Origin: a virus
Lineage: Duplodnaviria > Heunggongvirae > Uroviricota > Caudoviricetes
Virus record (IMG/VR): IMGVR_UViG_2537562194_000035
DNA: 41,291 bases
Strand: one strand, 5' to 3'
The translations under genes were made by a program, and so were the position numbers. A model generated the notes under the pieces. The model worked only from the letters and a program-made list of their open reading frames with translations. It made no database searches and was not told the origin of the DNA. This document shows, in pieces, positions 40,230 to 40,494 of this stretch; the first letter of the stretch is position 1, and every line of letters begins with the position of its first letter.

Positions 40230-40345
40230 GAAAAGCGCCGATTTAGTATCAAATAAGTTGCGTATCGGCGTTTTTCAGCGGTATCAAATGAAATGCAAAT
40301 CGGTATCAAAAAAATCGCCGCGCTATACGACGCGTTCGTTACTCA
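40230..40345. other. Estimated prophage right end (attR) with repeated candidate transposase-binding motifs
   Basis: Repeats of CGGTATCAAA (40278-40287, 40301-40310) and related CGTATCGGCG; GCGTTTTTC resembles the Mu R1 core; terminal CA at 40344-40345 coincides with the point where the downstream frame becomes protein-like. Exact end not determined. Confidence 0.4.
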
Positions 40346-40494
40346 ATACCGCTAAAGTCATGGTAAACAACCCGGTAGCGTTACGCTTAAAAGAACTGGA
40401 AACGCTGGAGAGAGTGGCTGAACGGATCGATAACATCTCTGTATTTGGCGGTCTGGATCAGGTTCTGCATGGGTTGGTTAATATCAAAGGGTGA
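40346..40494 (+). pseudogene. Probable 3' remnant of a host gene disrupted by the prophage
   Basis: The track ORF 40192-40494 has a Lys/Arg-rich N-terminal half encoded by the AT-rich phage end and a protein-like C-terminal 49 codons ending 5 nt before the next gene's ATG. Confidence 0.4.

Follow-up and report, generated by a model that had tools for sequence, protein, structure and literature searches.

The disrupted locus and its prophage

The window, a 41,291-nt stretch of DNA catalogued as IMG/VR record IMGVR_UViG_2537562194_000035, carries a Mu-like prophage of the Sp18 type and, beyond its right end, Escherichia coli host DNA. The prophage is 40,599 bp long, and positions 1 to 40327 of the window (+ strand) are all of it but the first 272 bp; the left end, with the terminus TGTAACC..., precedes the window and maps to L002:3023 in strain 95NR1. 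The last phage gene is mom (39462–40199, + strand; Pfam Mom, 4e-77; RefSeq "protein mom"), with com just upstream of it (39308–39508; Pfam Zn_ribbon_Com, 1.9e-12). Beyond mom lie the 128-bp noncoding prophage right end, or attR (40200–40327, + strand), which terminates ...GCGCTATA-3' and is the same to its last base across many genomes before unrelated sequence begins; the 3' remnant of a slipin gene (40328–40494, + strand), consisting of 2 nt of codon 321, codons 322 to 375, and the stop codon; and the next host gene (40500–41291, + strand), which encodes a 263-aa nucleotidyltransferase of the RlaP family (PF10127; Pfam RlaP, 7.9e-95; WP_001130533.1). An open reading frame of 100 aa with a GTG start and no Pfam match (40192–40494, + strand) runs across the junction of phage and host.

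The transposition genes lie at the opposite end of the prophage. The gene for transposase A (1003–3093, + strand; 696 aa; Pfam Mu-transpos_C, 1.5e-17, and HTH_Tnp_Mu_1, 6.9e-06) is followed by the gene for a MuB-type AAA+ transposition ATPase (3165–4097, + strand; 310 aa; Pfam Phage-MuB_C, 2.5e-25, and AAA_22), which is 48% identical to MuB, and the 82-aa product of the gene at the position of Mu's ner carries an HTH_35 domain (Pfam). Transposase A aligns with MuA over its full length at 22% identity (E = 6e-11) and is nearer to the transposases of Pseudomonas phage VW-6B (48%), a Klebsiella phage (41%), and phages of the D3112/DMS3 type (∼30%). Only mom resembles Mu at the DNA level (∼71% identity). 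A first-pass annotation, made from the sequence alone, had proposed a random Mu-type transposition, and this proposal agrees with what we found: MuA-type and MuB-type proteins, Com, and Mom are all encoded, and the phage occupies many unrelated sites in 232 genomes.

The prophage has been published as Phi12, a "Mu-like Myoviridae" of strains 95JB1 and 95NR1 (PMC6602927). It is 100% identical to the copy in strain ERL06-2497 apart from one IS insertion. Compared with an O157 copy (L004), it shows 98 to 99% identity for the greater part of its length, drops to 95.6% in a block of 636 bp, and fails to align in several stretches of the early region. Its terminal sequences, TGTAACCAGG... on the left and ...GCGCTATA on the right, are identical to those of Sp18 of the O157:H7 strain Sakai. 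Published accounts portray Sp18 as intact and Mu-like, packaged without circularization (PMC2669165), and inserted at a site that varies among strains (PMC7430833; PMC10132054). Some genomes carry two to four copies of the prophage.

The boundary between phage and host DNA

We searched 5,426 complete E. coli genomes by megablast with window positions 40150–41291 as the query. Only three genomes, those of the E. coli O111 strains 95NR1, 95JB1, and 8B, contain the full interval, each as a 100% match, and all 27 of the remaining matches listed begin exactly at window position 40328 (query base 179). At least 80% of the query was covered in 1,623 records, and the uninterrupted locus is present in ∼1,620 E. 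coli genomes. When approached from the phage side, window positions 40000–40327 were matched to their final base at 284 places in 232 genomes, and the neighbors beyond the right end were unrelated (dcuC, ydhR, comR, garP, flgL, prophage tail genes, and others). Because host matches start at 40328 and the phage end is conserved to 40327 beside unrelated DNA, the boundary of phage and host is 40327/40328, and the last bases of the prophage read ...ATCGCCGCGCTATA. As had been suggested in the first-pass annotation, the right end of the prophage is inside a host gene: the matches turn host-like at 40328, within a gene for a 375-aa slipin.

This boundary runs through the open reading frame at 40192–40494. 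The upstream 136 nt of the frame, which are in phase with the host remnant, consist of the last bases of mom plus the noncoding phage end, and only its last 167 nt (40328–40494) are host derived. It is an accidental fusion of phage and host DNA, and no gene. The earlier observation that this frame becomes protein-like only in its downstream part was sound, but the start proposed for that part, at about 40346, was not, as real coding begins 18 bp earlier, at 40328. RefSeq/PGAP annotates the ATG-started portion of the same frame (40288–40494) as a 68-aa "hypothetical protein," WP_001369689.1, which begins with 40 nt of phage right-end DNA and otherwise consists of the slipin 3' remnant. No Pfam domain was found in either the longer frame or WP_001369689.1, and the latter is a phage/host chimera that should not be counted as a gene. 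Terminator-like hairpins on the − strand cross the junction (40316–40334); we regard them as fortuitous, since phage and host bases happen to pair there. An Rfam search of 38900–41291 at E ≤ 1 gave chance-level matches only, far under gathering scores.

Insertion into the slipin gene

The uninterrupted locus is represented by E. coli E2863, in which an intact gene encodes a 375-aa slipin (SPFH/Band 7) protein (L001:1540–2667; WP_000592034.1). The gene order in E2863 is rluF, yjbD, slipin, the nucleotidyltransferase gene 5 nt further on, a zeta-toxin gene on the opposite strand, and lysC, and the prophage in 95NR1 is flanked by these same neighbors, in native order on both sides. The remnant at 40328–40494 is identical to L001:2501–2667, the last 167 nt of the intact slipin gene; the gene at 40500–41291 is the native downstream neighbor in the uninterrupted locus; and the first 965 nt of slipin adjoin the left end of the prophage, 272 bp before the window starts. 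The first-pass annotation had anticipated this arrangement of a 3' remnant, the next host gene, and a 5' portion beyond the left end, and our inspection of the left junction in 95NR1 found the 5' part of slipin directly against the left terminus. In RefSeq, this 5' part in 95NR1 is already flagged as a pseudogene ("slipin family protein, incomplete, missing C-terminus").

Base-by-base alignment of the empty site with both junctions located the insertion exactly. The empty site reads ...GGCAG-CGAC-GCGTT.... At the left junction in 95NR1, ...GGCAGCGAC is followed directly by TGTAACCAGG..., with the phage beginning TGTAACC; at the right junction, ...GCGCTATA is followed directly by CGACGCGTT..., with the phage ending ...CTATA. 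No base of the target was lost, and CGAC stands on both sides of the prophage, its right copy at 40328–40331 (+ strand). The empty site and target duplication that had been predicted for a Mu-type event were both found, but the predicted duplication length of 5 bp was not; the duplication is 4 bp, CGAC.

The insertion splits slipin at codons 321/322, and the Band_7 domain spans residues 147 to 318 of the intact protein (Pfam). The left fragment encodes 322 native residues followed by VTR; judging from this reading frame, the slipin protein would be truncated just past the SPFH domain and would lack its C-terminal 53 residues. The RlaP gene starts 5 nt past the slipin stop codon, and the two genes are probably cotranscribed in the intact locus. 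The RlaP gene would now be separated from its promoter by the 40.6-kb prophage, and polar loss of its expression is likely, because we found no promoter-like site on the + strand in 39900–40700.

The disrupted gene is part of an accessory cluster between yjbD and lysC, whose other members are the RlaP nucleotidyltransferase gene and, on the opposite strand, a gene for a PezT/zeta-toxin-like kinase. Of the 5,426 E. coli genomes, ∼1,620 have the RlaP gene and the 3' end of slipin. We considered whether the cluster is a known defense system and rejected this idea: PADLOC returned no matches for slipin or RlaP and a marginal one for the zeta-toxin (E = 8e-4).

Target-site duplications and termini of the Sp18 family

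A 4-bp target duplication was present in all 10 independent insertions of the Sp18-type family that we compared, and at the level of sequence this pattern is solid. The duplications are CGAC in slipin (the present window), TTCT in ydhR, ATAG in comR, ATTA in dcuC, and TAAA in sorM (Sakai Sp18); AGAA, AACA, and ATCA in the IMG/VR contig pairs L024/L021, L027/L012, and L028/L007, respectively; and, in divergent relatives, CGCA in flgL (strain M1) and TACG in a diguanylate cyclase gene (PO06021). The three contig pairs among these 10 were matched by genome identifier, and L028/L007 spans two genome identifiers. Extending the duplication by one base fits no better than expected by chance, in one insertion of 10 on one side and in three of 10 on the opposite side. 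When the phage and one repeat copy were removed, the rebuilt empty sites of ydhR and comR matched the intact genes at 300 of 300 positions. Because the length of a duplication equals the stagger between the strand-transfer points, we infer that the transposase of this family joins its ends to the target with a 4-bp stagger.

The ends of the prophage depart from the canonical TG...CA. The right terminus is TA in all copies, and the left terminus is TG in the Sp18-type copies and TA in the divergent E. coli relatives M1 and PO06021 (TA...TA). Although a TA right end might, on its own, suggest a crippled end, it is functional, as it is found at many different sites. TG-CA ends have been reported as conserved in every Mu- and B3-like phage described so far, and duplications of 5 bp for Mu, 6 bp for B3, and 6 bp for the TA-TA prophages of Leptospira (PMC8705779). 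In the available open-access papers and supplements, we found no statement on the duplication length or the ends of Sp18.

Two other ways of drawing the borders were tried and discarded. Assigning the left T to the target, so that the phage begins at G and the duplication is 5 bp, fitted three of the first four insertions and was ruled out by the empty slipin site and by seven of the 10 insertions; a 5-bp duplication that includes the final A of the phage fits only one of the 10. In the Sakai chromosome (NC_002695.2), the Sp18 feature is given as 5040971..5079729, whereas its true extent is 5040970..5079724 (38,755 bp), an offset of 1 nt inside the left end and 5 nt beyond the right end. The annotated borders look as if they had been placed to fit an imperfect 5-bp repeat. 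Borders of Sp18-type prophages can now be defined by TGTAACC...GCGCTATA and the 4-bp repeats.

Two further IMG/VR pairs, L009/L030 and L019/L032, were left out of the count because, within the same genome, their flanks disagree. Their left and right host flanks share no common duplication, which suggests several copies or Mu-type rearrangement between copies. Among the 10 insertions that were counted, the base flanking the duplication is C on the left in five and G on the right in six; this bias may point to a symmetric C-NNNN-G target preference, for which a sample of 10 is too small to judge.

Repeats at the prophage ends

The first-pass annotation had pointed to repeated motifs after mom. 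They are real: GGTATCAAA occurs at 40280–40288 and 40302–40310, and AGTATCAAA, with one mismatch, occurs at 40245–40253. The "CGGTATCAAA" motifs that it listed correspond to these three copies of a 9-bp core. In the 41.3-kb window, GGTATCAAA has four exact copies against 0.32 expected, and none of 100 shuffles reached four.

All three copies at the right end lie on the − strand. The terminal one, R1 (40302–40310; core TTTGATACC), lies 17 nt in from the terminus, as far from its tip as L1 is at the left end; R2 (40280–40288) is 22 bp from R1; and R3 (40245–40253) is 35 bp from R2 and is the one-mismatch copy, TTTGATACT, read as AGTATCAAA on the window strand. Counted inward from the tips, the core TTTGATAC(C/T) begins at nt 18, 113, and 165 of the left end and at nt 18, 40, and 75 of the right end. 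Its orientation relative to the tip is constant at all six sites, so that the left and right sets are inverted with respect to one another. Aligned from their tips, the two phage ends are in register: they agree at 18 of the first 26 positions, and each has its terminal core starting at nt 18.

MuA reportedly has three sites per end, with a terminal site, distant L2 and L3 sites, and close R sites, as Craigie, Mizuuchi and Mizuuchi are said to have described in 1984. Because the arrangement seen here matches this hallmark of MuA-type end binding, the end repeats are most likely transposase-binding sites. The further exact copies of GGTATCAAA are inside the prophage, at 3141–3149 (+ strand) and 21547–21555 (− strand), and the former sits in the 71-bp gap that separates the A and B genes.

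A model for the insertion and alternative explanations

We conclude that 40200–40327 is almost certainly the right end of a transposable Mu-like prophage of the Sp18 family (Phi12) that was inserted by DDE transposition into codons 321/322 of slipin. In our model, transposase A would bind the three TTTGATAC(C/T) sites at each end, of which the terminal site lies 17 nt from the tip in both, and would nick past the terminal A of each end. Aided by the MuB-like ATPase, it would then join both 3'-OH ends to target phosphates staggered by 4 bp, and repair of the gaps would produce the 4-bp duplication. Three elements of our interpretation are read from sequence only: that the transposase would bind the repeats, that its stagger would be 4 bp, and that slipin and RlaP expression would be affected.

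We weighed the possibility that 40192–40494, or its shorter portion 40288–40494, is a genuine small native gene and that the prophage ends upstream of it. The PGAP annotation of WP_001369689.1 and the uninterrupted 100-aa reading frame speak in favor of such a gene. Against it, the first 136 nt of the frame are phage DNA that stands beside unrelated host sequence elsewhere, and in the empty-site genomes examined its final 167 nt form the 3' end of an intact gene for 375 aa. Pfam recognizes no domain in the frame, and the junction exists in three genomes only. We looked for a locus carrying 40192–40494 as an intact native gene, the finding that would have overturned the first-pass interpretation, and found none. 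The empty-site alignment already refutes a native gene, and we give this explanation practically no credence. We find it equally hard to credit that a secondary rearrangement, for instance a recombination or deletion involving two Mu-like copies, split the gene in place of a single insertion. Some genomes do hold two to four phage copies, and the left and right flanks disagree in two IMG/VR genomes; at the present locus, however, one prophage lies between the two halves of the gene, which share an orientation, the target has lost no base, the 4-bp duplication is present, and rluF, yjbD, the zeta-toxin gene, and lysC remain in native order.

A third explanation holds that the junction is a canonical Mu-type one (TG...CA ends, a duplication of 5 bp) and that the present copy is merely point-mutated there. 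Mu itself duplicates 5 bp (PMC8705779), the base after the right copy of the duplication is T, like the first phage base, in three of the 10 insertions, and the annotated borders of Sakai Sp18 would fit an imperfect 5-bp repeat. Against this, all 10 insertions have the same outer T and A while the flanking bases vary, and a fifth base matches at chance level on either side. In addition, CGAC is bordered by G on either side in the empty slipin site, where the occupied site has T and A, and the two ends stay in register, the terminal repeat lying at nt 18 counted from either tip. We consider a mutated canonical junction very improbable, and we retain the single insertion with a 4-bp duplication as our interpretation.

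Comparison with other transposable phages

The closest known counterpart is Sp18 of Sakai O157:H7, which shares with the present prophage its termini, the 4-bp type of duplication, its gene set, and a strain-variable insertion site. Whereas Sakai Sp18 lies in sorM and is ∼38.8 kb long, the present copy lies in slipin between yjbD and lysC and is 40.6 kb long, including a 1,310-bp IS3-family insertion. The likeness to Mu extends to the order repressor, ner, A, B, to com-mom at the right end, to the levels of identity of MuB and of mom DNA given above, to three repeats per end with distant L2 and L3 and a 22-bp R1–R2 spacing, and to near-random insertion into genes. Unlike Mu, the prophage has a transposase only 22% identical to MuA, end repeats of unrelated sequence, a right terminus of TA and not CA, and a duplication of 4 bp and not 5 bp. 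The transposase type of Pseudomonas phages D3112/DMS3 is nearer to the present one (∼30% identity over 90% of the length), and the prophages of Leptospira offer a precedent for TA termini; the divergent relatives of Sp18 in E. coli are likewise TA...TA. However, B3 and the Leptospira prophages make 6-bp duplications (PMC8705779) in contrast to the 4 bp of the present family, and the structural genes and hosts of D3112/DMS3, B3, and the Leptospira phages differ from those of the present prophage.

The geometry of the Sp18 family, that is, a 4-bp stagger, TG...TA or TA...TA ends, and a transposase with 22% identity to MuA alongside a 48% identical MuB, may be undescribed for transposable phages in the accessible literature, although we lean slightly against claiming so. 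The insertion is an ordinary gene knockout by a transposable prophage, is already annotated publicly, and carries little weight by itself; the noncanonical duplication and termini are a modestly interesting by-product. If it is true that a Mu-like transposase works with a 4-bp stagger and TA ends, it would be a natural system worth comparing with the MuA transpososome. For the O111 outbreak strains, the predicted consequences are a truncated slipin and an RlaP nucleotidyltransferase gene that is probably cut off from its promoter.

Other features of the prophage

RefSeq places a "tRNA-OTHER" feature between the head-morphogenesis and virion-morphogenesis genes of four related copies (L004:21020–21100, L006:22503–22583, L035:21646–21725, and L036:21391–21470). 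The identical copy in ERL06-2497 is without this annotation, and ARAGORN found no tRNA anywhere in the window.

The IS3-family element in the present copy is 1,310 bp long (8473–9782), contains orfA (8527–8853) and orfB (8850–9740), and is bounded by 29-nt imperfect terminal inverted repeats. We take it to be IS629-like. It is flanked by a 3-bp duplication, GCC, interrupts an open reading frame in the early region of the prophage, and is the sole difference from the copy in ERL06-2497.
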